In this document: positions 9,216-39,003 of the stretch, in pieces | Layout of the letters: every line of letters begins with the position of its first letter | Position numbering within the stretch: the stretch's first letter is position 1 | Source of the DNA: Pseudomonadota bacterium | Lineage (GTDB): Bacteria > Pseudomonadota > Gammaproteobacteria > Enterobacterales > JBCCZV01 | Assembly: GCA_039187085.1 (NCBI GenBank) | Contig: JBCCZV010000004.1 | Span: 2,492 to 66,491, forward strand | Reading direction: 5' to 3' | Length of the DNA stretch: 64,000 nucleotides | Notes under the pieces: model-generated | Told to the model about the DNA's origin: nothing | The model's input: only the letters and a program-made list of their open reading frames with translations | Databases searched by the model: none | Made by a program: the position numbers and the translations under genes

Positions 9216-9272
9216 AATAAGAACCTTTTAAAATTTTTGTCCTATCAAAGAATTTTTTAATTTAAAGCCAAT

Positions 9273-11380: not shown

Positions 11381-11472
11381 TTTCATGGAGCGGAATCATA
11401 GCAAAGTCTTTGTGTGATGTCGATGCTGAAATACTCGTTTAACAAAACACATTGAATGAGTTGCTTCATATA

Positions 11473-12462
11473 TCACTTCTTTTCGTCAGTGGACTCTTCT
11501 GCAAAAGCATCATCCCAAGAAGGCTGTTCTTCATCATTGAAGTCGTCAGTTTCTGCAAAAGCATCATCCCAAGAAGGATCTTCCTCTCCTTCGGAAGTTT
11601 CTGCTTCTTGCTCAATGTCTGGCATCGCAGCCTCTTCATCAGCTTGTGAAACTGGAGTAGCTTCCTCAGATTCAGCATTTTCTTCGGATTCAAAACTTTC
11701 TTCATTATCAACCGAGGCATCAGCAGTATCTTCTGCAACCTGGCTCGTTGAAGCTTGCGAGTCATCTGACACATCAACATCTCCAGAAGCTGGCGTATCT
11801 TCTGTGCCTAAAGCACGTTTTGAAAAAGCCGACATGGCTTCAACAATTTCTTCAGCCGTCATATCCTGGCTGTTGACTTCTTCACCAAACATGGAAGAAT
11901 ATTCAGCGAATATATTATTTAATGTTTTTAATGTTTTGTGTATTTCCCGTTTTAAATCTTTATTTTCACTTTGTAAATCTGATACCTTGGACTCAGATGT
12001 TTCTAATTCTTTACGTATACCCTCTTCGCCAACCTCTGCATTACTTTCAGATGATGACTCACCCTCCGTTGATGAAGGAGCCTCTTGCACACCACCTGAA
12101 GCGTTAATTTCCTGCTGTAATAAAAAAGTGGTTGTTTCATTGTATTGATCAACCAAATCAGACAATTTTTCATGATCATTGTGTAATACACCATCCATCA
12201 AATGAATAACGAAATTGTTACGAACTTGATTGAACCCTTTTAATTTTCCGTGAGAATTTTCTTCCTCAACACCAATCGCCCCAAAAAAATCTTGTGCCAT
12301 TTTTTCTTGATTAGGTTTAGTTTCAATCATTCGATTTTTAAGGTTTTCTAAAATCTTCTTTTTATTTTTTCGATTTTTAAACCAACTTACAATGAATATA
12401 ATGTTCAACAACAATGGAATGAATAATAATTCTGCGGTTAAAATCCAAAAGTCCATATTCAT
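11473..12462 (-). CDS. hypothetical bitopic membrane protein with coiled-coil and extremely acidic C-terminal tail
   Basis: 329 aa. N-terminal TM helix FWILTAELLFIPLLLNIIFIVSWF followed by KNRKNKKK, so positive-inside predicts the C-terminus is cytoplasmic. Central heptad-like region, then a D/E/S-rich tail ending in two PSWDDAFAE motifs. The ATG overlaps the vWA gene stop (ATGA). I recognise no family. Confidence 0.6.
   Translation of the reverse strand: MNMDFWILTAELLFIPLLLNIIFIVSWFKNRKNKKKILENLKNRMIETKPNQEKMAQDFFGAIGVEEENSHGKLKGFNQVRNNFVIHLMDGVLHNDHEKLSDLVDQYNETTTFLLQQEINASGGVQEAPSSTEGESSSESNAEVGEEGIRKELETSESKVSDLQSENKDLKREIHKTLKTLNNIFAEYSSMFGEEVNSQDMTAEEIVEAMSAFSKRALGTEDTPASGDVDVSDDSQASTSQVAEDTADASVDNEESFESEENAESEEATPVSQADEEAAMPDIEQEAETSEGEEDPSWDDAFAETDDFNDEEQPSWDDAFAEESTDEKK
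11497..11577 (-). repeat. exact 27-nt in-frame direct repeat (two copies, 54-nt period)
   Basis: ttctgcaaaagcatcatcccaagaagg occurs at 11497-11523 and again at 11551-11577. On the coding (minus) strand each copy encodes PSWDDAFAE. Confidence 0.95.
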
Positions 12463-14390: not shown

Positions 14391-14567
14391 GTTTTGACTC
14401 CTTAAAAACCCAGAGTGAAACTAACTTACCTATTTTCAGCAAGTTATCACTTAGTAATCGCTCTTCAATAATGGCATTTATTGTTTAAGTGTAGTCAAAA
14501 GGGAAAAATTTGCTTGCAAACAAAGGGATAGGCCAGAAAAAGCTCATTTGAATGTCAGATATGGGTT

Positions 14568-14996
14568 TTAGTCAAACCAATCGATAACGTAATCTTCTAA
14601 ATCTTCTATTTCATGTTCTGAAATCACTCGACCTTGAACTGACTTGCCAAGCTCATGAATGCGATTTTTATCATTACAGACTAAATGGTGCCACTCAGGT
14701 AAATCTTGACCTAACCATACACGTCGGTATGCACAACTATCAGGTAACCAATCCATTTCTGGTACTTTTTTAGGTGTTAGCTTAACACAGCCAGGAACGA
14801 ATTTTTTTCGATTTTTATAATCTTTACAGTGACATGTCTGTGTATCTAACATAAAGCAGGATACATTGGTTTGGTAAAGTTCGTTGGTTTCATGATCTTC
14901 TAATACGTTGACGCAACATTTCCCACAACCATCACACAGCTGTTCCCATTCTTGTGATGTCATTTCCTCCAAAGATTTTTTTTTCCAAAAGCTCAT
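14568..14996 (-). CDS. ycgN: YcgN family cysteine-cluster protein (UPF0260)
   Basis: 142 aa with CDGCGKCC and further Cys motifs. Colinear with E. coli YcgN. Confidence 0.85.
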   Translation of the reverse strand: MSFWKKKSLEEMTSQEWEQLCDGCGKCCVNVLEDHETNELYQTNVSCFMLDTQTCHCKDYKNRKKFVPGCVKLTPKKVPEMDWLPDSCAYRRVWLGQDLPEWHHLVCNDKNRIHELGKSVQGRVISEHEIEDLEDYVIDWFD

Positions 14997-15655
14997 AAGC
15001 GCTTAACCCAAGTCTCTATTTTAAGCTTATCATCAAGACTCGCTACTATCTTGTCACCATCCATTAAAGCACCAACACCAGCAGGTGTTCCGGTCATCAA
15101 TACATCACCCTTTTTAATATCACACCAAGACACTATTGAACGAACCTGCTCTGTGACAGTAAAAATCATATCTTTGGCTATTCCCTGCTGGCGGTGTTGC
15201 GTATTGACAAACAATGAAAAAGTCAGGTTTTTAAACGTCTTAAAAGGATAATTTAGCCAAGGTCCGATGGGGCAACTGCCATCAAAGGCTTTAGCTGCTT
15301 CCCAAGGCAAACCCTTCGATTTAAGTATTGACTGTAACCCTCGCCGTGTTAGATCAAGACCAATAGAAACACCCACTATTGCTGATTCAATTTCTTCATC
15401 TTTTAATGATTCATTCGTTCGACTTATTGGATTGCCAAACAAAAGTGCAAGCTCTAATTCGTGGTGTACTTCACCAAACGCTTTCGGAATGAGTAAAGGA
15501 GCCCGCAAATCAACCCAGGCACTAGCAGGCTTCATAAACACCACAGGCTCCTCAGGAACTGTGTTGTTGAGTTCTTGTGCATGGTTTTGAAAATTTCGTC
15601 CAATACAAAAGATCCGGTTAACTGAAGGCCACTCATTTTGAACTGTCATTGTCAT
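14993..15655 (-). CDS. ycgM: fumarylacetoacetate hydrolase family protein (YcgM-like)
   Basis: 220 aa FAH-fold C-terminal domain (GRNFQNHAQE...GTPAGVG). 4-nt overlap with ycgN. Confidence 0.85.
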   Translation of the reverse strand: MTMTVQNEWPSVNRIFCIGRNFQNHAQELNNTVPEEPVVFMKPASAWVDLRAPLLIPKAFGEVHHELELALLFGNPISRTNESLKDEEIESAIVGVSIGLDLTRRGLQSILKSKGLPWEAAKAFDGSCPIGPWLNYPFKTFKNLTFSLFVNTQHRQQGIAKDMIFTVTEQVRSIVSWCDIKKGDVLMTGTPAGVGALMDGDKIVASLDDKLKIETWVKRL

Positions 15656-23292: not shown

Positions 23293-24108
23293 TCACCTGG
23301 TCGCCGCTTGTCGCATATCCTTAACAAATGAAGATAAGTTTTCTAACATAACAGGCACATCATCAACATTTTCTTCAATAATTCTTACAACGGCTGATCC
23401 TGAAATCGCACCTTTTGCACCGGCTGCTTTGGCTGCTTTAACATGCTCAGTTTTTGAAATACCAAATCCTAATACCGGCGGAGCGGATTTCATTTGGGTT
23501 AAACGATTGATCATGGAGTCAGGAGGCATACTCGCCACCACTTCAGTGCCAGTAACACCTGCACGACTTAACATATATACATAGCCTTGACTATGTTCAG
23601 CCACTAAATGTACTACATCATCGCTGGCGTCCGGCGGCAATATCAAGACTTGTTCCAATGCATATTTTTTTGCCGCATCTAAAAACGGATGTGCTTCAAG
23701 CAAAGGGACATCCGCGACTAAAATGGAATCGACACCAATTTTAGACAAGCGTTGATAAAAAGCGTCCACACCTCCGCGCATTACCAAATTGCAGTAGGTG
23801 AGTAATCCAATAGGAATATCAGGATATTCTTCACGAATTTCTTTGAGCAACTGTAATGACTGTTCAATGGTCACTTGATTATCCAAGGCTCTTATGGACG
23901 CTTTTTGAATAGTTGGCCCATCCGCGATAGGGTCAGAAAAAGGAAAACCTAACTCAAGCGCATCTGCACCTGAAGCAATCAAGGTTTTGATAATTGACTT
24001 ACTGGTCTCAATGTCTGGATCACCGAGCGTGACGAAAGGGATAAACGCAATACGGTTTTGCGCTTCTACCTGTTGAAACACAGGTCCATAACGATTACTC
24101 ATTTTCAT
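23293..24108 (-). CDS. trpA: tryptophan synthase alpha chain
   Basis: 271 aa. [27 protein letters not shown] and GFGIS motifs. Confidence 0.95.
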
Positions 24109-25297
24109 TTACCTCTTGGTTTTTTAATACACGCCTGACGTGTTCCAGATCTTTGTCACCACGACCCGAGAGATTAATTAAAATCGTACTCGGCTCCGTT
24201 TGTTCTTGTGCATATTTGTATGCGTAAGCTAATGCATGCGCTGATTCCAATGCAGGAATAATACCTTCCGTTTCAGATAAACGCTTAAATGCTATCAAGG
24301 CTTCATCATCCGTCACAGCCACATACTCTGCCCTCCCAATATCTTTCAAATGTGCATGCTGAGGACCTACTGCGGGATAATCTAAACCAGCGGAAACCGA
24401 ATAACTCTCTTCAATTTGCCCCTCTTCTGTTTGCATAATATAAGTGCGGGCACCGTGTAACACGCCCGATTCACCTTTCGTCAATGTTGCTCCGTGATGA
24501 TGAGTGTCAATGCCTTTTCCGCCGGGTTCAACACCTATCAAGCGTACATTTTCCTCTTCAATGAAGTCAGCAAACATACCAATAGCGTTTGAGCCACCAC
24601 CCACGCAAGCAATCACAGCGTCAGGTAATACTGTCTCTTTTTCTAATATTTGCTTTTTGGCTTCTTCACCTATCATACGCTGAAATTCACGCACTAACGT
24701 TGGAAAAGGATGAGGACCAGCCGCTGTTCCCAATAAATAATGCGTATCTTTGTAAGTAGCGGACCAATCTCTCATGGCTTCGTTAACAGCATCTTTAAGC
24801 GTACCACTTCCAGCACTGACCGGTATAACGCGTGCGCCCATAAGTTGCATACGAAAAACATTGGGCTGCTGACGAGCACAATCTTTCGCTCCCATGTAGA
24901 TACGTGCATTTAAGCCGAGCAGAGCACAGGCAATGGCGGTTGCAACACCATGCTGCCCAGCTCCAGTTTCGGCAATAATTTCATTTTTTCCCATACGCTT
25001 AGCCAAAAGTGCTTGACCTAGCACTTGATTGGTTTTGTGTGCACCACCATGTAATAAATCTTCGCGTTTAAGGTAGATTTTGACTTTTGGGTTAGGTGAA
25101 AACTGCCGACAAAGCGTTAAGGGAGTTGGGCGTCCCGCATACTCCTTTAAAAGGGTAGCAAACTCATGTTTAAATTCTGAGTCATTTTGCGCTTTAAAAA
25201 AAGCTTCTTCTAATTGCGTTAAAGCCGGCATTAAAATCTCAGGCACGTACATGCCGCCATAGTCACCAAAGTAACGGTTATAGTGGAGAGCTTTCAT
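24095..25297 (-). CDS. trpB: tryptophan synthase beta chain
   Basis: ORF runs to 25309 from TTG. GAGGAA-N4-ATG at 25297 is the likely start. PLP lysine motif HGGAHKTNQ, plus GGGSNAIG. Confidence 0.95.
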
Positions 25298-25401
25298 TAT
25301 TTTCCTCAAATTTTGACAATTAAGGGCCTTAGCAAATCATATAGCGAGGGCTCTAAATAAAAAATAATTAAGTATTATCTGAAACTTTTGTGTTATTCAC
25401 C

Positions 25402-26790
25402 TTAAATCACGTAATCATCGCGTAATTGCGCAAAAAGCTGTGATATTTTTACTGAATCCTTGTAACCCTTTACCGACTCGACACCAGAATTTACATCTAA
25501 AATTCCAGAAAAATTTTGTCGAGCTTCAATAATATTGTTCGGGGATAACCCGCCTGCAAGTATAAAGCGTTGATCTTGCTTTATTTTTTCAGGAATATCT
25601 TGCCAAGATAAAACTTGGCCTGTTCCTCCAAAAGCATCACCAGCTTTTGAATCTAATAGTGTACGATCAGCGTAGGCCACTAGCTCAATTGAGCCCACTT
25701 CATTTCCTGGAATTGCCTGCCAAATTTCTACACCTTTAGGTAATTCACGACGCAATTCCGCACGATAGGCGTCGTTTTCTTGGCCATGAAGTTGAACAGC
25801 GAATAGCTTGAGCAAGGCTGCCGTTTGCACAATTTCTGGTATAGGTTGATTAACAAAAACACCGACAAAATCAAGATCAGCCGCTTCAGTAATCAATTTG
25901 GCTTGTTTAACACTAATTGCACGAATAGATTTTGGTGCAAAAATTAACCCTCCATAACGCGCCCCAGAACGAGCTGCTATTTGTGCAATATCCGCATGCA
26001 TCAAGCCGCACACTTTAATATCGCCATGCGTTAGACCTGCAGACGCTTTTCGTAAATTTGGTATACTCATTAATGCGCTACCTACCAAGAAAGCGTCAAC
26101 GCTTGACGCTAAGTGCTTGATGTGTTGATAGGACTGGATTCCCGATTCTGACACTAATAGTGAGCGAGAAGTATTTTTCGCGCTCAGCTTCATTGAAGTT
26201 TCAATATCAATACTCAAATCTTTTAAATTACGATTATTGATCCCAATAATTTTAGCGCCGAGTTGCGTAGCACGGTGAAGTTCTTCTTCAGTGTGAACTT
26301 CAGTAAGTACATCCATCTGCCATTTTGTTGCAACTTTATGTAATGACCGATAATCATCGTCATCTAAAACCGATAACATTAATAACACAGCATCCGCACC
26401 GTAATATCGTGCTTTTAAAATCTGATATTCATCAAAAATAAAATCTTTACACAAAACCGGCTTATTTGATTGTTGCTTAACTAATGTTAGATTGGCATCA
26501 GCCCCTTGAAAATAATCCGGTTCTGTTAATACTGAAATGGCAGCAGCATAGTCGTTGTAAACTGTTAGGATTTTTTCTATATCAAAATCTTCGCGTAATA
26601 ATCCCCGAGATGGTGACGCTTTTTTACATTCCAAGATAAACTGTGGTCCAGGCTTACGTAATGCTTCTTCTAAACTCCGCATGGAAACAGTTAATTGCTC
26701 TTCTATTAGAGCTATAGGTAGTCTGGTTTTATCGATTTCTATGCGTTCTTTGCGTCGTTCCACAATAGTATCAAGTACACTTTTAGCCAT
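25402..26790 (-). CDS. trpC: bifunctional indole-3-glycerol phosphate synthase / phosphoribosylanthranilate isomerase
   Basis: 462 aa with an IGPS half (ECKKASPSRG, LLM) followed by a PRAI half (KVCGL...). This is the TrpC-TrpF fusion seen in enterobacteria. Confidence 0.9.
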   Translation of the reverse strand: MAKSVLDTIVERRKERIEIDKTRLPIALIEEQLTVSMRSLEEALRKPGPQFILECKKASPSRGLLREDFDIEKILTVYNDYAAAISVLTEPDYFQGADANLTLVKQQSNKPVLCKDFIFDEYQILKARYYGADAVLLMLSVLDDDDYRSLHKVATKWQMDVLTEVHTEEELHRATQLGAKIIGINNRNLKDLSIDIETSMKLSAKNTSRSLLVSESGIQSYQHIKHLASSVDAFLVGSALMSIPNLRKASAGLTHGDIKVCGLMHADIAQIAARSGARYGGLIFAPKSIRAISVKQAKLITEAADLDFVGVFVNQPIPEIVQTAALLKLFAVQLHGQENDAYRAELRRELPKGVEIWQAIPGNEVGSIELVAYADRTLLDSKAGDAFGGTGQVLSWQDIPEKIKQDQRFILAGGLSPNNIIEARQNFSGILDVNSGVESVKGYKDSVKISQLFAQLRDDYVI

Positions 26791-27793
26791 TGGTCATCTC
26801 CACCAACTGCTCTAATTTTTTCAAGGCTTTACCTTGATGCAAAATGTCTAAAGTAAAATCCATGGCTTCTTTAAGCGTGTTTTTGATGCCGTATAAGTAC
26901 ACCAGTGCAGCAGTATTCATAGCAATGATATGTCGATGAGCAAGGTCACCTTCACCTGCCAACACAGCACGAATAGCTTGTGCATTTTCTTGCGCGTCTC
27001 CTCCGACAATTGCAGAAAGCTCAGCACGCTCTATCCCGAAGTCACTAGGTTCAATTGTATATTCTGTTATTTTGCCTTGATTCATTTCTGCCACTTGTGT
27101 AACACCATGCAAAGCAATTTCATCCAGCCCTTCTCCATGTACCACCATGGCTCGTTGGCAACCTAAATGTGCAAGAGTTTCGGCTATGGGTCGGCATAAT
27201 GTCGGGTCGTAAACTCCCATTAATTGAACTTCTGGTTTTGCTGGGTTCGACAAAGGACCTAGGACATTAAAAATTGTACGTGTTGCTAACGTTTTGCGAA
27301 TAGGTGCTGCATGACGTACGCCTTGATGATAAAAAGGGGCATAGAGAAAACACACATCAAGTTCTTGCAAACATTTCTCAGCTACCTCGGCATCATGTTC
27401 TACTTTAACACCGAGCATTTCAAGTACATCTGCAGAACCACACTGCGAAGATACGGAACGATTTCCATGCTTTGCCATAGGAATACCACAAGCTGCGGCT
27501 ACAAAAGATGCTGCAGTAGAAATATTGATAGTTTTTAATCCATCTCCTCCAGTACCACAAGAATCCGCAACCGGTTTGCTTGGTTTCGCGAATGATTGAC
27601 ATGCCCTTCTAACAGCCTGAGCAGCACCAGCAATTTCTTGGGGAGTTTCTCCTTTTATTTTTAGACCAATAATTGCTGCGGTCATAGTAATAACATCCAT
27701 GTCACCATTCACAATGTCATGGAAGAGCTGATTACTTTCTTCTTGTGTTAATGCCTCAGCAAGATAGAGCTTATCCAATAATGCTAACATCAA
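26783..27793 (-). CDS. trpD: anthranilate phosphoribosyltransferase
   Basis: 336 aa with CGTGGDG and KHGNRSVSS motifs. Confidence 0.92.
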   Translation of the reverse strand: MMLALLDKLYLAEALTQEESNQLFHDIVNGDMDVITMTAAIIGLKIKGETPQEIAGAAQAVRRACQSFAKPSKPVADSCGTGGDGLKTINISTAASFVAAACGIPMAKHGNRSVSSQCGSADVLEMLGVKVEHDAEVAEKCLQELDVCFLYAPFYHQGVRHAAPIRKTLATRTIFNVLGPLSNPAKPEVQLMGVYDPTLCRPIAETLAHLGCQRAMVVHGEGLDEIALHGVTQVAEMNQGKITEYTIEPSDFGIERAELSAIVGGDAQENAQAIRAVLAGEGDLAHRHIIAMNTAALVYLYGIKNTLKEAMDFTLDILHQGKALKKLEQLVEMTNG

Positions 27794-27832
27794 TACTTTC
27801 TCCTCTAATGCGTTAAAATTTTGTTAAAAACT

Positions 27833-28435
27833 CTAGAAATGTTGCTGTAACCAATGGATAGTTTGTTGTAATAATTGATAGCCTTGTGTGCTTAAAATAG
27901 ATTCGGGATGAAACTGAAAACCTACGATTCGATGATGGTCATCAACAAAACTCATGATAATTTCTTCAAAGTGTGCAATTGCTTTAAGTTCCGAAGGCAA
28001 TTCACTTACAACAAGAGAGTGATAACGTGCAATACGTAAGTTTTTCGGTAAATCAGAAAAAATAGTATGAGATTCCAGTTGAATCGTACTCGCTTTGCCA
28101 TGAACAATAACATCGGTTTGAGTCACTTGTGCACCGTAACTCAAAGCAATGGCTTGATGACCTAAACAAATACCTAACATTGGCAGTTTCCCTTTAAATC
28201 GATTAACGATTGCCACTAGCTTACCTGCCTCAGCAGGATGACCAGGACCAGGAGAAAGCACCAAAACGGTTTTTGGGTGTTGAGCAACAAATCGGTCAAT
28301 TAAATCCAAAGAAACATCATTACGATATACAGTGACGGCATAGTTTAACTTCAATAAATCATCAACCAAGTTGTAGGTAAATGAATCATAATTATCAATA
28401 AATAAGATATGCATATTTTTTTCGTATGAATTCAT
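27833..28435 (-). CDS. trpG: anthranilate synthase component II (glutamine amidotransferase)
   Basis: 200 aa. GICLGHQ catalytic Cys and FHPES. ATGA-type overlap with trpE. Confidence 0.92.
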   Translation of the reverse strand: MNSYEKNMHILFIDNYDSFTYNLVDDLLKLNYAVTVYRNDVSLDLIDRFVAQHPKTVLVLSPGPGHPAEAGKLVAIVNRFKGKLPMLGICLGHQAIALSYGAQVTQTDVIVHGKASTIQLESHTIFSDLPKNLRIARYHSLVVSELPSELKAIAHFEEIIMSFVDDHHRIVGFQFHPESILSTQGYQLLQQTIHWLQQHF

Positions 28436-30048
28436 ACTGATACCTCATCATCAATTTGAATATCAAAATGATGCGCTTCTGCGATCGCTTTAATGACCGC
28501 CATAGCTTTATTTAATGTTTCTGTAACTTCAGCGTCTGGATCTGAGTCATGAACAATACCCGCCCCTGCTTTAATATAAGCCATTTGATTTTTAATCAAT
28601 GCTGAGCGTATAACGATGCAGGTATCCATATTACGCTCGCCATCCAGATAACCGACGGCACCACCATATGCCCCACGACGCTTTTTTTCGACACGACGCA
28701 AAATTTCGGCTGCTTTTATTTTAGGTGCGCCCACTAAAGTTCCCATGTTCATACAAGCCAGGTAGGCATGAAGCGCATCCAATTCATTTCGCAGTTCCCC
28801 TCTAACTCGTGAAACCAAATGCATAACATGAGAGTATCTATCCACATTGAGTAATTCAGGCACATGACGAGAGCCCGGCTTAGATATACGAGCAATATCA
28901 TTTCTCGCAAGATCAACCAACATGAGATGCTCCGTTACCTCTTTTTCATCCATTTTCAGTTCGGCTTCAATTTTAGCATCGAGATCTAAATTCAATTGAC
29001 CATCATGATATTTACCTCGAGGTCTGGTGCCTGCGATAGGGTAGACTTCAACATGTCTCGAAGACTCTTCATATTTAACAGCACTTTCTGGAGATGCGCC
29101 AAATAATTGAAAGTTATCATCGTTCATAAAAAACATGTAAGGACTGGGATTTAAACTTTTGAGTTTTCGATAACTCAGAAAAGGATGAGTACAAGGTAAG
29201 CTAAATGTCCTTGAAGGAACAATTTGAAAAACCTCTCCTTTAGCAATTTCTTGCTTCATAGCACCAACAACGGATTTATACTCGGAACGACTCACATCAA
29301 CGGCTACGGATTGTTTTTGTGTATGGGTATTTAAATCCGGCAATGCAAATACTGTTCCTTCACTTACAGACTCAATTTGCCGTTTTAAATCAGCTAGCGT
29401 ACGACTCATATCAAAATAGCAAGCTTCTTGATTTTCTCCATCAAACACATTACCAATTAATCGAGCACTGTAACGTTTATGGTCAATAACTAATAAGGTT
29501 TCAGCAAGATAAAACACATAGTTGGGTGTATCAGCTTCTCCCGTATTAACCTCAGGTAAGGTTTCAAAGGTTTCTATCAAATCATAACCAAATAAACCAC
29601 ATAAAAAGCTTGAATAAGGCTCATTAGATTTACCAAAAACTTGTTGTATTTTTCTCAGAACATCAACAGGAGAGCGCGAAAATAGCCGTCCTTCTTCATC
29701 TTGATTGCGATCATTTTCTTCATAACTTAATGTGAGATGTTCATCTGAAGAAGAAGTCTCATCATCAGTCAAATTTAACTTTAACAATTTAAGAGCTTGA
29801 ACACCGTTAGCGTTAAGTGCTGATAGCGTTACTTGCCGTTCAACACAAACAATTCGCAACACAGAAGACAGAACCAAAAGGCTTTTTTCTGCATGTTTCG
29901 ATCCTATTTCACTAGACTCTAATAGCATGGTTGATTTTTTTTTGCCTTGATAAGTCAGGTGATAAAAAATATTTAAAGGGTCATGCTGACAATCCACTTT
30001 AACACTTAAGGATTTAACCTTAGGTTTCGTGTTTACAAAGGTAGTCAT
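28432..30048 (-). CDS. trpE: anthranilate synthase component I
   Basis: 538 aa chorismate-binding fold (GAPKIKAAEIL, GAYGGAVGYL, GAGIVHDSDP). The ATG overlaps the stop of the upstream DAHPS-like gene (ATGA at 30045-30048). Confidence 0.92.
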   Translation of the reverse strand: MTTFVNTKPKVKSLSVKVDCQHDPLNIFYHLTYQGKKKSTMLLESSEIGSKHAEKSLLVLSSVLRIVCVERQVTLSALNANGVQALKLLKLNLTDDETSSSDEHLTLSYEENDRNQDEEGRLFSRSPVDVLRKIQQVFGKSNEPYSSFLCGLFGYDLIETFETLPEVNTGEADTPNYVFYLAETLLVIDHKRYSARLIGNVFDGENQEACYFDMSRTLADLKRQIESVSEGTVFALPDLNTHTQKQSVAVDVSRSEYKSVVGAMKQEIAKGEVFQIVPSRTFSLPCTHPFLSYRKLKSLNPSPYMFFMNDDNFQLFGASPESAVKYEESSRHVEVYPIAGTRPRGKYHDGQLNLDLDAKIEAELKMDEKEVTEHLMLVDLARNDIARISKPGSRHVPELLNVDRYSHVMHLVSRVRGELRNELDALHAYLACMNMGTLVGAPKIKAAEILRRVEKKRRGAYGGAVGYLDGERNMDTCIVIRSALIKNQMAYIKAGAGIVHDSDPDAEVTETLNKAMAVIKAIAEAHHFDIQIDDEVSV

Positions 30049-31061
30049 AATCTTTTCCCCGCTGCAGAAATAAAAGGCTCAAGTTCCAACATTAAGCGTT
30101 TAAATTGATTGGCTGTGAGAGATTGGTATTCATCAGAAACGCTTTCGTTGAGTTTCAGGTGTGTTTCTAACATCAAACCGTCAGCACCACATGCAATAGC
30201 AGCTTTAGCCAAGGGTGTTACTAATTCTCTTATTGTTGTACCGTAAGATGGGTCAACTATGACGGGCAAATGTGATTTAGTCTTAATATAAGCGACAGCA
30301 TTTAAGTCCAAAGTGTTGCGAGCTGCATTTTCAATGGTTTGAATTCCTTGTTCACACAGTACAATATTTTCGTTACCTTCGTTATAGATGTATTCTGCCG
30401 CTAGTAAAAATTCTTCAATCGAAGCTGATAAGCCTCTTTTTAATAGAACAGGTTTTTGGGTTTGCCCAACACTTTTTAGTAATGCGTAGTTTTGCATATT
30501 TCTGGCATCGATTTGGAACATATCAACATATTCGCTAATACTTTCAACATCACGTGTATCAATGACTTCAGAAATCATTGCTAGGCCACTCTTATCAGCC
30601 GCCGCCCGCATCAACTTCAATCCCTCATACCCTAAGCCTTGAAAAGAGTAAGGACTGCTTCCCGGTTTAAATGTACCACCGCTCAGACCTGAAGCGCCAC
30701 TTTCTTTTACCATGGTGGCAATATCCTCAATTTGCGTAGCGTTTTCAACGGTACGGGGACCCGCTATCACTGAAAACACCTCTGAGCCAATGGTAAAATG
30801 TTCATTAATGTTTACCAAAGTATCATGTGCGTGAAACTCTCTGCTCACTAATTTATAAGGAGTAGTAACTGGTTTTATCGCTTCAATTAATGTACTAGGT
30901 AACGTGCTTAAGCGCTTTAACGCTGATTCTTCTCCGATGGCACCAATAACAAGTCGCTCTATTCCTGGCATCAAAAGCGGCTTCACTCCATGATCTTCTA
31001 TAAGTTTTACGAGCTGTTTCGCATCTTCATGCGTGGTCTCAGGTTTTAAAATAATTATCAT
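30045..31061 (-). CDS. DAHP synthase type I-beta-like protein with N-terminal ferredoxin-like domain; catalytic motifs substituted
   Basis: ORF runs to 31076 from TTG. AAGG-N5-ATG at 31061 is likely (MIIILKPE...). Colinear with Thermotoga/Bacillus-type DAHPS (YKLVSREF, SPYSFQGLG, ARNMQN, LLKRG, VSD). It reads GPRTVE where I recall GPCSVE, KPGSS for KPRTS, CEQGIQT for CERGIRT and DPSYG for DPSHS. Confidence 0.8.
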   Translation of the reverse strand: MIIILKPETTHEDAKQLVKLIEDHGVKPLLMPGIERLVIGAIGEESALKRLSTLPSTLIEAIKPVTTPYKLVSREFHAHDTLVNINEHFTIGSEVFSVIAGPRTVENATQIEDIATMVKESGASGLSGGTFKPGSSPYSFQGLGYEGLKLMRAAADKSGLAMISEVIDTRDVESISEYVDMFQIDARNMQNYALLKSVGQTQKPVLLKRGLSASIEEFLLAAEYIYNEGNENIVLCEQGIQTIENAARNTLDLNAVAYIKTKSHLPVIVDPSYGTTIRELVTPLAKAAIACGADGLMLETHLKLNESVSDEYQSLTANQFKRLMLELEPFISAAGKRL

Positions 31062-31086
31062 CTCTACCTTGCTCAAATTATTGTTT

Positions 31087-31113
31087 AAAAAAAACCCGCC
31101 GTTGAGCGGGTTT
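31087..31113 (-). terminator. attenuator terminator 2 (proximal to the aro-trp operon)
   Basis: Minus strand AAACCCGC-TCAACG-GCGGGTTTTTTTT (8 U). It ends about 25 nt before the ATG at 31061. The upstream segment GAGTAGGGTTT (31148-31138) is near-complementary to the 5' arm AAACCCGCTC and could act as an antiterminator. Confidence 0.75.
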
Positions 31114-31142
31114 CCTTAGGTTAAAATTAAAACGGAAAAACC

Positions 31143-31199
31143 CTACTCTATTAAGCAGAACCACCACCAAAAGCTATCTTGAAATAAGCATTTACACAC
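31143..31199 (-). CDS. putative trp leader peptide 2 ((M)CKCLFQDSFWWWFCLIE)
   Basis: AGGA-N9-GTG TGT AAA TGC TTA TTT CAA GAT AGC TTT TGG TGG TGG TTC TGC TTA ATA GAG TAG. Three consecutive Trp codons, and the stop codon lies inside the antiterminator segment. The GTG start is the weak point. Confidence 0.55.
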   Translation of the reverse strand: MCKCLFQDSFWWWFCLIE

Positions 31200-31246
31200 G
31201 TTTAATTTTCCTACGATACCAATAAGTTATTCCCATAAGCAAAATA

Positions 31247-31280
31247 CAAAAACAAAAAAGCCCGCTTTCGCGGGCTTTTT
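31247..31280 (-). terminator. attenuator terminator 1 (distal)
   Basis: Minus strand AAAAAGCCCGC-GAAA-GCGGGCTTTTTTGTTTTTG. The upstream GTGGGC (31312-31307) can pair with the GCCCGC arm (one G-U) as an antiterminator. Confidence 0.75.
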
Positions 31281-31318
31281 ACTAATAAGTGCTCGTGCAC
31301 GGCATTGCCCACTCCTAT

Positions 31319-31363
31319 TTAAGAATGTAGCCACCACCAGATTTTTGCACGTACACTATACAT
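31319..31363 (-). CDS. trpL: putative trp leader peptide 1 (MYSVRAKIWWWLHS)
   Basis: GGAGA-N7-ATG TAT AGT GTA CGT GCA AAA ATC TGG TGG TGG CTA CAT TCT TAA. Good SD, ATG start, three consecutive Trp codons, followed by an antiterminator and terminator. Confidence 0.75.
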   Translation of the reverse strand: MYSVRAKIWWWLHS

Positions 31364-31504
31364 TGTATTCTCTCCAAAAATAATAATCTTAGGCTAACAG
31401 ATATCATCAATGAGTCAAGCTATATTCACGAGACTTTTCTGACAATGTTGCAGTAGCTATTTTAAATAACTGATTAATCCATTATTCAAGTCAAAGTCTT
31501 TGAA

Positions 31505-34096
31505 TTACTCTGTCAACACAAATTCTCGTGCTGATTCGCGCCGATTATACATTGAGCCCATTACTTTGCCGTAAGCACCGGTATTAGCTATTGCAATAAT
31601 GTCGCCTTCTTCTGTCATGGGAAGATGACGGTCAACGCCTAATTTATCACCAGTCTCGCAAATAGGTCCAACAATATCAACCGTTTCGCAGGCGGCTTGA
31701 TTCAGTTTGGTCAAATTTGCAATTTCATGATGTGCCCCATAAAGAGCTGGACGTATGAGTGAGTTCATACCTGTGCTGATTCCAACATATTTGTGGCCTT
31801 CTTTTCCTTTTGTTTGTGTCACAGTGGCTAATAACACACCAGATTGCGCTACCAAAAAGCGTCCTGGCTCCAACCAGTATTCATACTGAGGAAAAGCTTT
31901 CTTCACTTCGCTTAATACACCATCGAGGGCAGCAAAATTCAATGCGACGTCAGAGTTCTTTTCAGGTACGCCCAATCCACCACCAAGATCGAGGTATTTA
32001 ACGTCAGGAAAGTTTTCAGCAACCTTGACTAGTGTTAATGCGGTATTTTTCCAATTTTCGTGATCCAAAATGCCAGACCCCGAATGTGAATGTAAACCAA
32101 TCACTCGACAATCGGTTTGTTTTACTGCTGTTACTAATTCATCCATTTGGAAAAGCGGTACACCGAATTTTGACTGGTTACCCGCTGTTTTGACATGCTC
32201 ATGATGCCCCTGCCCCTTGCCAGGATCGATTCGAATAAGAATGTCTCTACCCTTAAAGACTTCAGGCCAAGCCTGTAAAGGATAGAGGTTATCCAACGTT
32301 AATATCACGCCTTTTTCTATGCCATATTGATACTCTTCTCGCGGAGCAAAATTTGGTGTAAACAATATGCGCTGCTTGTCTAAGCTTGGAAATAGTGCTA
32401 ATACGTGCTCAATTTCTTCTGGACTTACGCATTCGAAGCCCATATTGGCGTCATAAACACGCTGTAAGATTTCAGGATGAGCATTAGCTTTAATGGCGTA
32501 AAAAACGCGCTTTATAGAAGACAAACTTTGTAATTGGTCAATCGCACCTTGCACACTTGGCAAATGATAAACATAGGCATGTTGGTGCTGCTTGGCTAAG
32601 GCGATAAGTTCAGCAGCCTGGCGTTGCCACCAAGCCTTTGCAATCGCGGTCTTTTCTTCAGAGACTTTCGCAAAAATTTGTTCCCAAGCTAAGCCAAGAA
32701 TACTGCTATCTGCATTTTGCGTGATAAAAATCTCATGGAGCTGTTGGACCAACCGATCCGCTTGCAATTCGTCAACAACAATCGTCAAGTTCAAATCATT
32801 AGCGGCTTGTGATAATAAATGAATTTTATGCTCATGGAAAACTTCAAAAGCATCCGCCAATTTATGGAGTATGGTGCGGATATTGTGTCCCACGATAGAG
32901 ACTGCTGCACAGTTTTCAAGTACACTAACTCGACATATAGTACTCAACTGACGTTGCAAATGCTCTAAAGTCTGTCGCTTTATTTTTCCAGCAGATGGAT
33001 CTAAAGAAACCGTCACACTCGATTCTGAGGTAGATACTAAGTCCACCGATAAACCAAACTGCTTAAAATAGGCAAATGCATCGGCCAAAAATCCAACTTG
33101 ATGCCACATCCCTACGGTTTCCATTGAGATGAGAATGACATTTTTTCGTGCTGATATAGCTTTCACTTGGGCTACACCGGTCACATCATCCGTAATTAAT
33201 GTACCTTCAAGTTCAGGCTGGGGCGTACTGCAAATTTTAGTGGGTATTTTGCGTTCTCTGACAGGATGGATACAGCGTGGATGAAGAATTTTCGCGCCTG
33301 TCGTTGCGATTTCTTGTGCTTCATCGTAAGAAATGTGTTTAATCAAACGAGCAGCAGGAATAGCTCGAGGATTTGCTGTAAACATACCAGGAACATCTGT
33401 CCATACTTCGTAGGATTTGGCTTCCAGTTTAGCTGCAAAATAAGCACCTGAAGTATCCGAGCCGCCCCGCCCTAACAGTACAGTTTCGCCATCAATGTTA
33501 CTAGCAATAAATCCTTGCGTGATAACCAAAGGACCATTTTCTTTAAAAACTCGTTGTAACTCTGGTTCTGGTTGAAAGTCACATGTAGAGTTCAAGTAAT
33601 GTTTTTCATCACCTAGAAGGACATCTCCCTCTGCCTTTAGGACATGGCGGGCATCTAACCAGTACGCAGCTACACTGAGCTCACGTTGTAAGTAGGCAGC
33701 ACCCAAAGTTGTTGACATCAATTCGCCGAGAGAGACGACTTTCGCTTGGGTACGTGGACTGTATTCTCCCACGAGTGATATGCCTTGTAAGGTATGCTCC
33801 AAAATCTCGAAATAGGCATTTAAGAGAGGCTCAGCAGTAAGGCCCAACTCTGTTGCCAATGTTACATGCTGTTCTCGTATAGCATTCACAACATCGATAT
33901 GCTCATTGGAAACACTACGATTGAGAGCTTCCTCCAATTGATTGGAAACTCCACTTAACGCCGAATGAACGATACAAACTCGAGCTTTATTCTCTAACTT
34001 TTGTTTCACAACCTTAGCAATAGTTGCCCAATTTTTAGCCGTTGAAACACTCGTGCCCCCAAACTTAAGTACTATCCAGGGATTTGTATTCGTCAT
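31505..34096 (-). CDS. bifunctional aspartate kinase / diaminopimelate decarboxylase (LysC-LysA fusion)
   Basis: 863 aa. The N-terminal half is an aspartokinase (VLKFGGTSV, GRGGSDTSG, two ACT-like segments). The C-terminal half is LysA-like (PLP Lys in YAIKANAHPE, GGGLGV, EPGR, CETGD). Single uninterrupted frame. Confidence 0.85.
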   Translation of the reverse strand: MTNTNPWIVLKFGGTSVSTAKNWATIAKVVKQKLENKARVCIVHSALSGVSNQLEEALNRSVSNEHIDVVNAIREQHVTLATELGLTAEPLLNAYFEILEHTLQGISLVGEYSPRTQAKVVSLGELMSTTLGAAYLQRELSVAAYWLDARHVLKAEGDVLLGDEKHYLNSTCDFQPEPELQRVFKENGPLVITQGFIASNIDGETVLLGRGGSDTSGAYFAAKLEAKSYEVWTDVPGMFTANPRAIPAARLIKHISYDEAQEIATTGAKILHPRCIHPVRERKIPTKICSTPQPELEGTLITDDVTGVAQVKAISARKNVILISMETVGMWHQVGFLADAFAYFKQFGLSVDLVSTSESSVTVSLDPSAGKIKRQTLEHLQRQLSTICRVSVLENCAAVSIVGHNIRTILHKLADAFEVFHEHKIHLLSQAANDLNLTIVVDELQADRLVQQLHEIFITQNADSSILGLAWEQIFAKVSEEKTAIAKAWWQRQAAELIALAKQHQHAYVYHLPSVQGAIDQLQSLSSIKRVFYAIKANAHPEILQRVYDANMGFECVSPEEIEHVLALFPSLDKQRILFTPNFAPREEYQYGIEKGVILTLDNLYPLQAWPEVFKGRDILIRIDPGKGQGHHEHVKTAGNQSKFGVPLFQMDELVTAVKQTDCRVIGLHSHSGSGILDHENWKNTALTLVKVAENFPDVKYLDLGGGLGVPEKNSDVALNFAALDGVLSEVKKAFPQYEYWLEPGRFLVAQSGVLLATVTQTKGKEGHKYVGISTGMNSLIRPALYGAHHEIANLTKLNQAACETVDIVGPICETGDKLGVDRHLPMTEEGDIIAIANTGAYGKVMGSMYNRRESAREFVLTE

Positions 34097-36387: not shown

Positions 36388-39003
36388 TCAATTCTGTAAT
36401 TTTTCTTGTATATATTGACGAATCACATTGACATCTGCGGGTAAGCTATCGCAACGTTGCGGTAAACCCTCAAGCGCTGCGATACTTGCAGTTTTTTCAG
36501 GCAATATACCTATGGCTTGATGCACGCTATCTGGAAATTTAGCCGGATGAGCAGTACTTAGACAAATCACTCTATCGTCGGTATATTTTTTTGCTGCAGC
36601 AACCCCTACTGCCGTGTGAGGGTCACATACAATACCTTCTTCAGCCAATGCTTTAATAGTCGCTAAAGTTTCTGATTGGCTAACTTTATACGCCACAAAA
36701 AATTGTTGAGCTTTTAACAATTGAGTTTCACTCAGTTGATATTGTGAATAAGCTTTTAATTCAGCCATTTTTGCTCTTACTATGGAACCATCGTAACCAC
36801 ACAGATCATATAAGAAGCGTTCAAAGTTACTGGATACCTGAATATCCATGGCAGGACTTAACGTCGCTTGTACTTCTGTTACTTTGTAGCAACCCGTTTT
36901 TAATGTGCGCTCAAGAATATTGTTTTCATTGGTAGCAATGATAAGCTTGTTAATTGGCAAACCCATTTTTGTGGCAATATATCCTGCGTAAATATCGCCA
37001 AAATTACCAGTTGGTACAGAAAAAATCACTGGTTTTTTTGGATTTGCTTCCTGAAAACGCAATGTTGCATAAAAGTAGTAAACAACCTGTGACAGTATTC
37101 GAGCCCAATTAATAGAGTTGACTGCGCCTAACTGAAGTTTATCTTTAAAATCTAAGTCACTAAACAATGCTTTAACAATATTTTGACAATCATCAAAAGT
37201 GCCATCAATAGCAATATTGAATACGTTTTCATCCAATACGGTTGTCATTTGTTGCTCTTGGACTTTACTGATCTTGTCTTTAGGGTGGAGCATGAATATA
37301 TTAATACCTGTTTTACCTCTTACCCCTGTTATAGCAGCACTGCCAGTATCACCCGACGTTGCTCCTAATATATTAAGTTGTCTTTGGTTTTTGCGAAGAA
37401 AATAGGAAAAAAGATTTCCTAAAAATTGTAGAGCAACATCTTTAAAAGCATGTGTTGGACCATGATAAAGCTCAACTAATGAAACTTGTTTGGTATGTGT
37501 GATAGGCGTAATGTCTGGATGTGAAAATGTGTTGTAACTATTTTGCACAAGTTCACGTAGATCATCTTTTGGAATAGATTCTCCAGTAAAAAGTTGAAAA
37601 ATTTCAAACGCTAACTGTTGATAACTCAACATTTTCCAACGCTGAAAACGCTCTTGTACATTCGGTATGACTTTGGGTATAAACAGCCCACCATCTCTAG
37701 CGAGACCCTCTAAGACGACTTGTTCAAAAGTGTATTTTTCTTGTTTGTCATTGTCGCTTCTTGTGCTCACATACTCGATATTAAAGACATTACTCTTAGT
37801 TCTTTTGTTATTTTTTAGCATACTTTTAATATTTTTTAGGGCTTGTCGGGTTCTTTGTTCGTTTTCTATCAGCGCAAAACGCACATAATTATCACTGTAT
37901 TGGCCGAAACCTATGCCAGGAGACACTGCGACATTGGTTTCCTTTAAAAGTTGCTTCGCAAAGTCTAATGACCCCATATGATTGAATGCGTCAGGAATTT
38001 TTGCCCAGACAAACATCGTCGCTTTAGGAAGAGGCACCGACCAACCTATTTGATTAAGCCCCTCATAAAGTACGTTTCTTCGTTTTTGATACATCTGGCG
38101 AATATCTTCAACACAATCTTGCGGTCCAGACAATGCTTCAATGGCTGCAACTTGAATAGGCGTGAAAATACCATAATCCAAATAAGATTTAAGCTTAGTG
38201 AGCGCACCGATTAGTATAGGGTTTCCACAGCAAAAACCAACCCGCCAACCCGCCATGTTATAGCTTTTGGATAACGAATAAAATTCTACAGCTATGTCTT
38301 TAGCTCCCGGTATTTGCAAAATTGAAGGGGCTCGATAACCATCATAGACTAATTCAGCGTAGGCTAAGTCATGCACTATCCAGATCTCATGTGCTTTTGC
38401 CAAATCGACAATACGCTGGAAAAAATCAAGCTCTACACATTGAGTACTTGGATTGGCAGGAAAATTCAATATAAGCATTTTTGGCCTTGGCCAGCTATTC
38501 GCAATTGCCTCTTCTAAAGAGTCAATAAAAGCATTGATGTTTTCACTGAGAGGCACATGCCGAACGTCCGCACCAGCAATAACGACACCGTAAGGATGGA
38601 TCGGATAAGCGGGGCTTGGTACTAAAACCGTATCGCCACGTTGCAAGGTTGCTAATGCTAAATGCGCTATTCCTTCTTTTGAGCCGATGGTAACAATCAC
38701 TTCGGAATCATGGTTAAGTTCAACTTGATATTGCCGCTGGTACCATTCAGCCATAGCTAATCGTAAGCGCTCAATACCCTTTGAGGAGGAATAACGGTGC
38801 GTTTGAGGGTTCGCTGCAGTTTCAACCAATTTGTTGATGATATGTTCAGGCGTGGCGCTATCCGGGTTGCCCATACTAAAATCAATGATATCTTCCCCTG
38901 CAGCACGCGCTTGCATCTTGAGCTCGCCAATCACATTGAAAACATACGGGGGAAGCCTGTCAATTCGGTCAAAGTGTTTCTTCACGGCTGAGTCTTCTCT
39001 CAA
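36388..39003 (-). CDS. fusion of class I/II PLP aminotransferase (AlaC/AspC-like) and threonine synthase
   Basis: 871 aa. Residues 1 to about 395 are aminotransferase ([25 protein letters not shown]-Lys). Residues from about 409 to the end are long-form ThrC ([20 protein letters not shown]-Lys). The junction ...[25 protein letters not shown] (37780-37818) has no stop and no frame change. The N-terminal start may be the GTG at 38985. Confidence 0.8.

Follow-up and report, generated by a model that had tools for sequence, protein, structure and literature searches.

A catalytically degenerate type I-beta DAHP synthase homolog, and candidate pseudoenzyme, as the first cistron of a Trp-attenuated trp operon

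Introduction

The type I-beta DAHP synthase (DAHPS) of Thermotoga maritima (structures 1RZM, 1VR6, and 3PG9) matches the DAHPS-like protein described here in its two-domain architecture and in length, and the two are 45–46% identical in an ungapped alignment. Within the same superfamily, the non-metallo KDO8P synthases naturally carry Asn in place of the metal-site Cys and are active enzymes. The roles of the active-site residues of T. maritima DAHPS have been described (PMC6362186). A degenerate relative has also been reported: the AroQ-PheA fusion of Shewanella carries an aroA(I-beta) pseudogene domain (PMC1173090).

In genomic setting, the best match is provided by the attenuator-controlled I-beta DAHPS proteins encoded in trp operons of marine gammaproteobacteria (Aliikangiella, Enterovibrio/Grimontia/Photobacterium, Aeromonas, and Thalassomonas/Colwellia). 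Their genes occupy the same first-cistron position, often with the same ATGA overlap; as in the present locus, Trp leaders precede these canonical first cistrons (in tandem in the Aliikangiella-like clade), and the encoded proteins are 55–60% identical to the DAHPS-like protein. A canonical DAHPS gene lies directly upstream of trpE in six lineages, including Aliikangiella, Enterovibrio, Aeromonas, Thalassomonas, and related MAGs. This layout, with a canonical I-beta DAHPS gene at the head of the trp operon, is ancestral and widespread in marine Gammaproteobacteria; thus, the position of the DAHPS-like gene is ordinary.

Gene model, domain architecture, and operon setting

The window, i.e., the whole stretch of 64,000 nucleotides that was analyzed, contains the features listed in Table 1. 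The open frame of the DAHPS-like gene as called spans positions 30045–31076 on the minus strand, with a TTG at 31076. The ATG at 31061 is likely the real start, because AAGG is found 6–9 nt upstream of it and the TTG lies directly against the T-run of the terminator. The 338-residue product from this ATG is identical to the protein in the NCBI and Logan assemblies (P0001).

Table 1. Features of the DAHPS-like gene and the trp operon in the window (Tm, T. maritima DAHPS numbering)
Feature	Position	Strand	Remarks
Leader peptide 1, MYSVRAKIWWWLHS, stop	31319..31363	-	Rfam Trp_leader 31 bits, E 7e-4 (below the RF00513 gathering score of 41)
Attenuator terminator 1	31255..31280	-	11-bp GC-rich stem and T-run
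Leader peptide 2, (M)CKCLFQDSFWWWFCLIE, stop	31143..31199	-	GTG start; Rfam Trp_leader 27.7 bits, E 5e-3 (below the RF00513 gathering score of 41)
Attenuator terminator 2, AAACCCGC...GCGGGTTTTTTTT	31087..31113	-	About 20 nt before the start of the DAHPS-like ORF
DAHPS-like ORF, 338 aa	30045..31061	-	ATG 31061, TGA 30047-30045; catalytically degenerate type I-beta DAHP synthase homolog
Ferredoxin-like (ACT-like) N-terminal regulatory domain, residues 1-66	30864..31061	-	Pfam PF18152 (DAHP_snth_FXD), 4.1e-13
DAHP_synth_1 TIM-barrel domain	30093..30809	-	Pfam PF00793, 6.9e-65
Arg108 codon CGT	30753..30755	-	In place of metal-ligand Cys (Tm Cys102); orthologs TGT/TGC
GLSGGTFKPG segment	30660..30683	-	Ser132 for PEP-binding Arg (Tm R126); Gly139 for E4P-phosphate Arg (Tm R133), codon GGA, 30662-30660, read on the DNA; Lys137 kept
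Asp190 codon GAT	30507..30509	-	In place of invariant Gly of QIGARN (Tm G184, PEP contact)
QGIQ	30339..30350	-	Gln243 for Tm R237 (PEP phosphate), codon CAA, 30350-30348; Gln246 for Tm R240, codon CAA, 30341-30339; both read on the DNA
Tyr278 codon TAC	30243..30245	-	In place of metal-ligand His (Tm His272)
Rewritten beta8 loop around the kept metal/E4P ligand Asp315	30129..30152	-	P303L, A306S, L307V, G310E (Tm numbering)
ATGA, stop of DAHPS-like ORF and start of trpE	30045..30048	-	Translational coupling; same 4-nt overlap in Enterovibrio, MAG L031, and Thalassomonas
trpE-trpG-trpD-trpC(F)-trpB-trpA	23293..30048	-	All intact

In sequence and fold the protein is a member of the type I-beta DAHPS family, defined by PF00793 together with PF18152. 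It scores 410 bits against NCBIfam PRK08673 (cut-off 335) and 332 bits against a second NCBIfam DAHPS model (cut-off 268), 50–70 bits below its orthologs on the same models. Its AF2 model has a pLDDT of 90.9, a confidence driven by the alignment of canonical homologs, and matches T. maritima 1VR6 with a TM score of 0.92 in Foldseek. The colinearity with DAHPS enzymes carrying a ferredoxin-like (FL) domain that the first-pass annotation had proposed is borne out by both Pfam domains and by phmmer, which aligned the protein with 1RZM/1VR6 (E about 1e-92) ungapped through every motif. Its description of the gene as intact, attenuator-controlled, and overlapping trpE likewise held up on the DNA.

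The two tandem units upstream of the gene, each consisting of a WWW run, a GC hairpin, and a T-run, have the features of ribosome-mediated Trp attenuators. All six Trp enzymes encoded downstream scored above their NCBIfam equivalog cut-offs, indicating that the pathway is not decaying, and the neighborhood of the operon is ordinary and intact. As a first cistron that overlaps trpE behind Trp leaders, and with nearest homologs in the trp-operon I-beta DAHPS clade of Gammaproteobacteria, the gene qualifies as an ortholog of these enzymes; its product groups with the Aliikangiella-like clade.

Active-site substitutions

The ungapped alignment with T. maritima DAHPS revealed the substitutions C102R, H272Y, R126S, R133G, R237Q, R240Q, and G184D, whereas K131, R186, K207, E298, and D309 have retained equivalents (Lys137, Arg192, Lys213, Glu304, and Asp315, respectively). 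Thus, two members of the metal-ligand quartet (C102, H272, E298, and D309) are lost, having become Arg108 and Tyr278, and two are kept. The PEP-binding set (R126, K131, A/S185, R186, K207, and R237, with G184 as a contact) is broken by R126S, R237Q, and G184D, and the E4P-phosphate motif KPRT/S (R133 and T134) reads KPGSS, at a position where all 119 close homologs have Arg. The beta8 loop is HLKLNESVSDE vs. the consensus HLNPKEALSDG. Nearly all of the active-site changes are single-nucleotide steps.

The substituted columns are 97–100% invariant among the 119 nearest homologs; therefore, the substitutions are not due to chance. The same columns are conserved more broadly: in 150 diverse representatives the metal-ligand Cys is present in 145 and the His in 144, and the Arg residues that bind the PEP carboxylate (R126), the PEP phosphate (R237), and the E4P phosphate (R133), invariant in the 119 close homologs, are found in 144–147. 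Of the conserved columns, 12 had an a priori functional assignment, and 6 of these changed; of the other 121, 13 changed (Fisher p = 0.002).

The first-pass annotation had read GPRTVE, KPGSS, QIDARN, CEQGIQT, and DPSYG by eye. The ungapped phmmer alignment confirmed these readings, so the alignment by eye was not shifted, and the Arg108 and Tyr278 codons were found on the DNA as it had described. Its list was incomplete, however, omitting both the replacement of R126, the PEP carboxylate binder, by Ser132 and the beta8 loop, and its statement that all binding motifs are substituted went too far in view of the five retained equivalents. The alignment does support its central point: with two metal ligands out of four gone, along with several arginines that bind substrate, ordinary DAHP synthase activity is, as judged from the sequence, very unlikely.

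Phyletic distribution of the substitutions

In a full-length search the protein itself was recovered at 100% identity and the next match at no more than 60%, and all 119 nearest homologs were canonical. An exhaustive representative-level search of 1.84 billion proteins yielded no R/Y variant among its top 150 matches. We also searched 5.8 billion clusters for the variant motifs with an X-masked query, in which only 5-mers with variant residues were kept; it yielded six candidates, and the DAHPS-like protein itself was the only one that passed with the residue combination. A peptide-pattern scan of genome contigs, with patterns unique to the query, returned only chance canonical DAHPS loci (from a Spirochaete and others) and did not match the source genome. 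The databases searched yielded no sister sequences, and literature searches for a DAHPS that is dead or a pseudoenzyme, or that is encoded in a trp operon, returned nothing specific. All evidence for the protein thus comes from one sequence in one sample, represented by the NCBI MAG and the Logan assembly of SRR22824305; the putatively dead version is so far a singleton, known from one uncultured lineage. On the question of whether orthologs share both the position and the substitutions, raised in the first-pass annotation, the answer is divided: the DAHPS of relatives also precedes trpE, but none of the 119 nearest homologs shares the R/Y substitutions.

Other degenerate I-beta homologs exist. 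P0124 is a singleton dead copy inside a visibly decaying aro/trp cluster, P0187 is a dead homolog on a 2.5-kb contig, and P0251 and P0186 are DAHPS-prephenate dehydratase fusions in which the DAHPS half is degenerate. A common family of dead I-beta homologs was considered and rejected, as neither P0124 nor P0187 has the pattern of the DAHPS-like protein.

Selection on the scaffold and the active site

Among conserved barrel columns, 12 of 46 near catalytic residues are changed vs. 1 of 56 elsewhere (p = 4e-4). Canonical outgroups of equal overall identity, used as a control, show the reverse, for example, 0 changes close to catalytic residues and 9 away from them. The FL domain has retained 21 of 27 clade-invariant columns. 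Relaxation of the regulatory domain, with the remaining 6 of 27 columns changed, was considered and rejected, because canonical outgroups change 9–20 of these columns. As judged from column conservation, both the scaffold and the regulatory domain are probably still under selection.

The DAHPS-like branch evolved about 2.3-fold faster than expected. Its terminal branch equals those of TrpE, TrpG, and TrpD, and the DAHPS/TrpE branch ratio is about 1.0 here vs. 0.23–0.63 in canonical lineages. The acceleration, together with the single-nucleotide active-site steps, is compatible with a fairly recent relaxation. In a neutral simulation that ignored indels, only about 1–2% of genes were still stop-free at the divergence of the active-site columns. 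Synonymous sites are saturated in comparisons with relatives (57–60% protein identity).

Interpretation

The protein is a clear enzyme homolog without residues essential for catalysis, and we consider it somewhat probable that it is a lineage-specific pseudoenzyme, catalytically dead but selectively maintained. On this reading, its gene would be the positional ortholog of the Trp-attenuated type I-beta DAHPS that is the first trp cistron in relatives, where the enzyme would supply extra entry flux to the shikimate pathway under Trp starvation. One lineage would have lost the DAHP-synthase chemistry, with two metal ligands replaced (Cys by Arg, His by Tyr), three or four arginines that bind substrate phosphate or carboxylate changed to Ser, Gly, or Gln, and two acidic residues gained (Gly to Asp and Gly to Glu). 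Arg108 may sit where the metal was bound and pair there with the Glu and Asp ligands that remain; removal of cationic residues would neutralize a pocket that has ceased to bind PEP and E4P, and might thereby stabilize the apo barrel. The protein would still be made under Trp starvation and still fold, with its barrel scaffold and FL domain under purifying selection; retained expression, folding, and purifying selection would make it a pseudoenzyme rather than a decaying pseudogene. The most likely reason for its retention, we infer, is a combination of roles in cis and in trans. In cis, translation of the first ORF would bring ribosomes to trpE via the ATGA overlap and avert polarity; in trans, a folded, tetramer-type protein could act non-catalytically, e.g., by binding an effector through the conserved regulatory domain. 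The first-pass annotation had suggested a TrpE-binding pseudoenzyme, a ligand sensor, or an enzyme with new chemistry; retention of the open frame for a reason in cis, such as coupling or polarity, was not among its hypotheses.

An account that we regard as rather unlikely is that the gene is a relic: a dispensable isozyme would have lost activity fairly recently, and the ORF would stay open only because its closure by a nonsense or frameshift mutation would bring about polarity and break the coupling with trpE, the protein itself being functionless. The singleton status amid canonical relatives, the accelerated rate, and the active-site changes of mostly one mutational step each are all in keeping with it, as are the ATGA overlap with trpE conserved in relatives and the sporadic dead I-beta copies elsewhere, of which P0124 sits among decaying genes. 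However, selection for an open frame alone leaves unexplained why changes reached 26% of the active-site-proximal columns but spared 55 of 56 scaffold-invariant columns and most of the clade-specific FL columns. Moreover, the ORF could easily have been deleted instead, as many trp operons have no DAHPS-like ORF, and neither the trp genes nor their neighborhood are decaying. Concentration of change in the active site on a preserved scaffold would also suit a neo-functionalized barrel, whose less cationic, metal-free pocket binds or transforms a non-phosphorylated ligand of the Trp branch (chorismate, pyruvate, or anthranilate) or docks on anthranilate synthase. Such a site would combine the kept Lys137, Arg192, Lys213, Glu304, and Asp315 with the gained Arg108, Tyr278, Asp190, and Glu316; several substitutions are non-conservative and charge-changing, beyond mere loss of function, and the gene is co-expressed and translationally coupled with trpE. 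Nevertheless, we rate this possibility as improbable: with no second sequence carrying the same residues, selection on the new residues themselves is unsupported, single-step mutations are expected from drift at released sites, and we know of no member of the DAHPS/KDO8PS/NeuB superfamily with such a site.

Continued activity as a DAHP synthase, or as some other PEP-dependent aldolase, through an atypical active site that works without a metal, by analogy with the non-metallo KDO8P synthases, appears very improbable. The protein does pass both NCBIfam DAHPS cut-offs and retains the K131, R186, K207, E298, and D309 equivalents, and KDO8PS is generally known to tolerate substitution of the Cys with activity; 2NWR and 2NXG, members of an engineered KDO8PS series, were both among the structure matches. 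Yet the losses extend beyond Cys and His to R126, R237, and R133, and the scores on those models fall short of those of the orthologs. An assembly, binning, or sequencing artifact, which the single sample might suggest, is scarcely credible: there are thirteen or more coordinated missense differences at invariant columns without a frameshift, the sequence is identical in two assemblies (NCBI MAG and Logan), and the gene is colinear within an intact operon.

If the maintained pseudoenzyme, our preferred reading, has a function in trans, it would add a new type of regulator to aromatic amino acid biosynthesis. The specific proposal that this is the first DAHP-synthase-derived pseudoenzyme with a positive role in the Trp branch, as a subunit binding anthranilate synthase or a metabolite sensor (through the metal-free pocket or the FL domain) that modulates chorismate flux, is doubtful at present. 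If there is no function in trans, the locus would be an example of operon architecture holding a dead first cistron open. In either case, although its singleton status limits generality, the locus would be a natural experiment: a protein that lost catalysis but retained its fold and regulatory domain, from a gene whose expression signals and translational coupling persist. There is also a practical consequence: the gene passes the NCBIfam cut-offs and is given the name 3-deoxy-7-phosphoheptulonate synthase by all automatic pipelines, and in NCBI, which would be an annotation error given that DAHP formation is predicted to be very unlikely, and metabolic reconstructions of this MAG would err at the point of entry into the shikimate pathway.

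Comparison with known systems

T. maritima DAHPS has Cys102, His272, Arg126, Arg133, Arg237, Arg240, and Gly184, where the DAHPS-like protein has Arg, Tyr, Ser, Gly, Gln, Gln, and Asp; with these seven substitutions and the rewritten beta8 loop, metal and substrate binding are not expected. The non-metallo KDO8P synthases, as is generally known, keep the His, Glu, and Asp ligands and all PEP and sugar-phosphate residues, whereas the DAHPS-like protein lacks the substrate-binding arginines. The Shewanella fusion, P0251, and P0186 resemble it in being I-beta homologs that persist in aromatic amino acid biosynthesis minus catalytic residues; however, these are fused domains with other substitutions, while the DAHPS-like protein, encoded in a trp operon, is free-standing and has no close relationship to any of them. 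Its marine gammaproteobacterial counterparts at the head of the trp operon keep every catalytic residue, and the DAHPS-like protein alone does not.

Loss of the DAHPS active site

The product of the first trp operon gene (P0001) belongs unambiguously to the type I-beta DAHP synthase (DAHPS) family by sequence and fold: it matches Pfam DAHP_synth_1 (6.9e-65) and DAHP_snth_FXD (4.1e-13), exceeds the cut-offs of NCBIfam PRK08673 (410 vs 335 bits) and a second NCBIfam DAHPS model (332 vs 268 bits), and matches T. maritima DAHPS (1RZM/1VR6) at about 1e-92 in a phmmer search of PDB sequences. The T. maritima alignment has a single one-residue gap, well ahead of the barrel; therefore, the catalytic columns cannot be shifted, a concern attached to the by-eye alignment of the first-pass annotation.

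Functional residues were set a priori and mapped onto T. maritima numbering (PMC6362186): metal ligands C102, H272, E298 and D309; PEP-binding residues R126, K131, A/S185, R186, K207 and R237, with PEP contacts from G184 and H272; and E4P-binding residues R133, T134 and D309. Codons at changed positions were taken straight from the DNA and then set against those of orthologues. In the window protein (343-aa numbering; minus 5 for the 338-aa protein), C102 is replaced by R108, H272 by Y278, R126 by S132, R133 by G139, T134 by S140 (Ser also in 11 of 120 homologues), G184 by D190 and R237 by Q243. Kept are K131 (K137), A185 (A191), R186 (R192), K207 (K213), E298 (E304) and D309 (D315). Further changes are R240Q and G275T, and the beta8 loop is rewritten (P303L, A306S, L307V, G310E). 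Every motif substitution listed in the first-pass annotation was borne out by alignment and codons, although its claim that all motifs were substituted went too far, given the residues kept, and it overlooked R126S and the beta8 loop. Three features define the enzyme functionally, namely a complete metal tetrad, KPRT and the full set of PEP arginines, and none of them is intact in the window protein. The doubt already voiced about ordinary activity stands: with the metal, PEP carboxylate/phosphate and E4P phosphate residues gone, canonical DAHP synthesis is very unlikely.

Rarity of the residue combination

The 119 nearest homologues (55-60% identity) all carry Arg126, Arg133, Gly184, Arg237 and His272, and 118 of them carry Cys102; none has the Arg/Tyr substitutions, and all are canonical. 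Of the 133 columns conserved to 97% or more in this set, 19 differ in the window protein. Among 150 representatives taken from an exhaustive search over 1.84 billion proteins, 144-147 are canonical at the active-site columns named above. When 5.8 billion clusters were searched with only those five-residue words that contain variant residues, the window's own protein was the sole return. The combination is a singleton in public data, where no homologue more than 60% identical to the window protein was found. A Logan protein (P0017, 58% identical), otherwise a canonical trp-clade DAHPS, has Gly for the metal-ligand Cys, which may reflect an error in sequencing or the beginning of another inactivation.

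Operon context

The most likely start of the ORF is ATG 31061, preferred because AAGG lies 6-9 nt upstream, whereas the alternative TTG 31076 directly follows the terminator T-run. The resulting 338-aa protein is identical to an NCBI entry ([quoted passage not shown]) and is also contained in the Logan assembly of SRR22824305. The genes that follow are trpE, trpG, trpD, trpC(F), trpB and trpA, whose products all exceed NCBIfam cut-offs; the remaining window genes are intact and ordinary for a free-living gammaproteobacterium. The Trp pathway of the window is not decaying.

Coordinates of features in the window and in comparison loci
Feature	Position	Strand	Details
DAHPS-like ORF	30045-31076	-	ORF call
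P0001	30045-31061	-	338 aa
ATGA	30045-30048		TGA of DAHPS-like ORF overlaps trpE ATG
Tandem attenuators	31080-31365	-	two units
Unit 1 leader peptide	31363-31319	-	MYSVRAKIWWWLHS*
Unit 1 terminator	31280-31255	-	
Unit 2 leader peptide	31199-31143	-	GTG start; CKCLFQDSFWWWFCLIE*
Unit 2 terminator	about 31113-31087	-	
LysC-LysA-like fusion	31505-34096	-	863 aa; aspartokinase (AA_kinase + ACT) + diaminopimelate-decarboxylase-type PLP decarboxylase
Aminotransferase-threonine synthase fusion	36388-39003	-	871 aa; class I/II aminotransferase + complete threonine synthase (Thr_synth_N + PALP + THR4_C)
Cobalamin riboswitch	11204-11391		116 bits
B12 uptake/salvage cluster	5865-11391	-	ABC ATPase, FecCD permease, BtuR/CobO adenosyltransferase, periplasmic binding protein, TonB-dependent receptor
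ORFs of 310-410 aa	11473-12462; 47921-48853; 49129-50361	-	no Pfam match, E <= 1e-6
L002 (Aliikangiella) tandem attenuators	5575-6000		
L005 (related metagenomic contig) tandem attenuators	5630-6000		
L030 aro-trp supraoperon	2346-15649		ENA ERZ25039514 contig_85621; P0124

The gene had been described as intact, preceded by Trp attenuators and joined to trpE by ATGA, and this is what we see. The two ribosome-mediated attenuators each have a WWW leader peptide and their own terminator; their Rfam Trp_leader scores (31 and 27.7 bits) are below the gathering score of 41. That score is exceeded 5' of the DAHPS gene in Aliikangiella (L002) and Enterovibrio (L003), and a WWW leader peptide with terminator occurs in all five lineages with sufficient upstream sequence. 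Aliikangiella and a related metagenomic contig also have tandem units; Enterovibrio and Aeromonas have one each.

The position before trpE is likewise shared. Canonical I-beta DAHPS genes lie directly 5' of trpE in six lineages, namely Aliikangiella maris (L002), Enterovibrio baiacu (L003/L004), a metagenomic contig (L005/L006), an NCBI MAG (L031), Aeromonas diversa (L032) and Thalassomonas actiniarum (L033), with a 4-nt start/stop overlap in L003, L031 and L033. Neighbor-joining trees of DAHPS, TrpG and TrpD group the window with Aliikangiella-like sequences. Since layout, leaders and trees are as in relatives, the window gene is, by position, orthologous to a DAHPS isozyme under Trp attenuation. 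Judged from these loci, the layout is ancestral and ordinary for the clade; the novelty is confined to the active site, and its loss is lineage-specific.

Selection on the scaffold

The comparison covered columns with at least 97% conservation across the clade; those within three residues of an a-priori catalytic residue were counted as near. In the barrel, 12 of 46 near columns are changed, as opposed to 1 of 56 others (Fisher p = 4e-4); in the N-terminal ferredoxin-like (FL) regulatory domain, 6 of 27 are changed, mostly conservatively. The pattern is inverted in canonical I-beta enzymes whose overall identity to the clade consensus equals that of the window protein (FL, near and far changes: 9, 0 and 9 in P0126; 15, 1 and 8 in P0125); therefore, the scaffold and regulatory domain of the window protein show the degree of conservation expected within the clade, and only its active site is aberrant. 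Given the FL counts of these controls, the idea that the FL domain was also relaxed was dropped.

The terminal-branch ratio of DAHPS to TrpE is 1.01 in the window vs 0.23-0.63 in six canonical lineages; the DAHPS branch is about 2.3-fold accelerated, yet here the protein does not outpace TrpE, TrpG and TrpD, which are working enzymes. In a rough simulation of neutral nucleotide substitution that ignored indels, only 1-2% of genes were stop-free once 20-26% of residues had changed, the level seen at active-site-proximal columns. The AF2 model (pLDDT 90.9, pTM 0.86, TM 0.92 to 1VR6) has its sole weak block in the flexible beta2-alpha2 (KPGSS) loop; its confidence is weak evidence of fold, because the alignment consisted mostly of canonical homologues. 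Taken from one sequence without sister taxa, these results argue that catalysis was freed from selection or actively remodelled, and that folding and probably the regulatory domain are still selected. Most of the changes in the active site each take a single nucleotide step, so an old date for the relaxation is not required.

A probable maintained pseudoenzyme and its alternatives

On balance, and with moderate confidence, we regard the protein as a dead but maintained pseudoenzyme. Arg108 could fill the place left by the metal, flanked by the kept Glu304 and Asp315, and loss of four Arg with gain of Asp190 and Glu316 would remove the cationic character of the pocket. Such a pocket would no longer bind about five negative substrate charges, and its neutralisation may make the apo barrel more stable, a trait typical of pseudoenzymes. 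The protein would be produced only on read-through of the tandem attenuators, that is, upon Trp starvation, and its translation terminates within the trpE start codon. Two non-exclusive roles seem most likely: in cis, handing ribosomes to trpE and avoiding polarity; and in trans, a folded, non-catalytic protein binding an effector through the conserved FL domain or associating with other pathway proteins. Regulation of anthranilate synthase, as one example of a trans function, we rate as unlikely; a trans function of this kind, if true, would make the protein of much higher biological interest.

The cis role accounts for the open reading frame but not for scaffold conservation; a relic that has no function and whose frame is held open by cis constraints is a tentative alternative with a real, if lesser, chance of being correct. 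A neo-functional pocket or partner binding is quite doubtful. That some DAHPS activity is left is highly improbable, the residues that bind metal, PEP and the E4P phosphate being absent. The substitution pattern is real and statistically non-random, and an artefact is barely credible.

Annotation and other window features

Because the protein passes DAHPS model cut-offs, it has practical relevance for annotation; its NCBI name is likely a functional over-annotation. The LysC-LysA-like fusion adjoins the trp leader region directly upstream, and the cobalamin riboswitch heads the B12 cluster.

Comparison with known systems

In sequence and fold, the window protein is a member of the trp-operon-embedded gammaproteobacterial I-beta DAHPS clade. 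Non-metallo KDO8PS is a poor analogue, because only its Cys is replaced (by Asn) and all else is kept. Free-standing, sporadic I-beta homologues with degenerate active sites include P0239 and P0187; the latter keeps 27 of 27 clade-invariant FL-domain columns and has a wrecked barrel active site. In Shewanella, an aroA(I-beta) pseudogene is fused to AroQ-PheA (PMC1173090), and P0251 and P0186 are DAHPS-prephenate dehydratase fusions with a degenerate DAHPS half; these are fused domains with other substitutions, whereas the window protein is free-standing. No paper describing a trp operon with a dead, free-standing DAHPS was found in the literature searched, a set outside which the two most relevant reviews fall. 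P0124, an I-beta homologue without several catalytic residues (K131T, G184D, R186G, K207E, H272R, E298Q), is flanked by aroC and trpE; in this aro-trp supraoperon EPSP synthase, TrpE, TrpC and TrpB seem split or truncated, as a result of either pathway decay or many errors in a long-read assembly. In contrast to that cluster full of split genes, the trp genes of the window are intact. The window protein, with its lost active site, is best described as a pseudoenzyme derived from a well-known enzyme.
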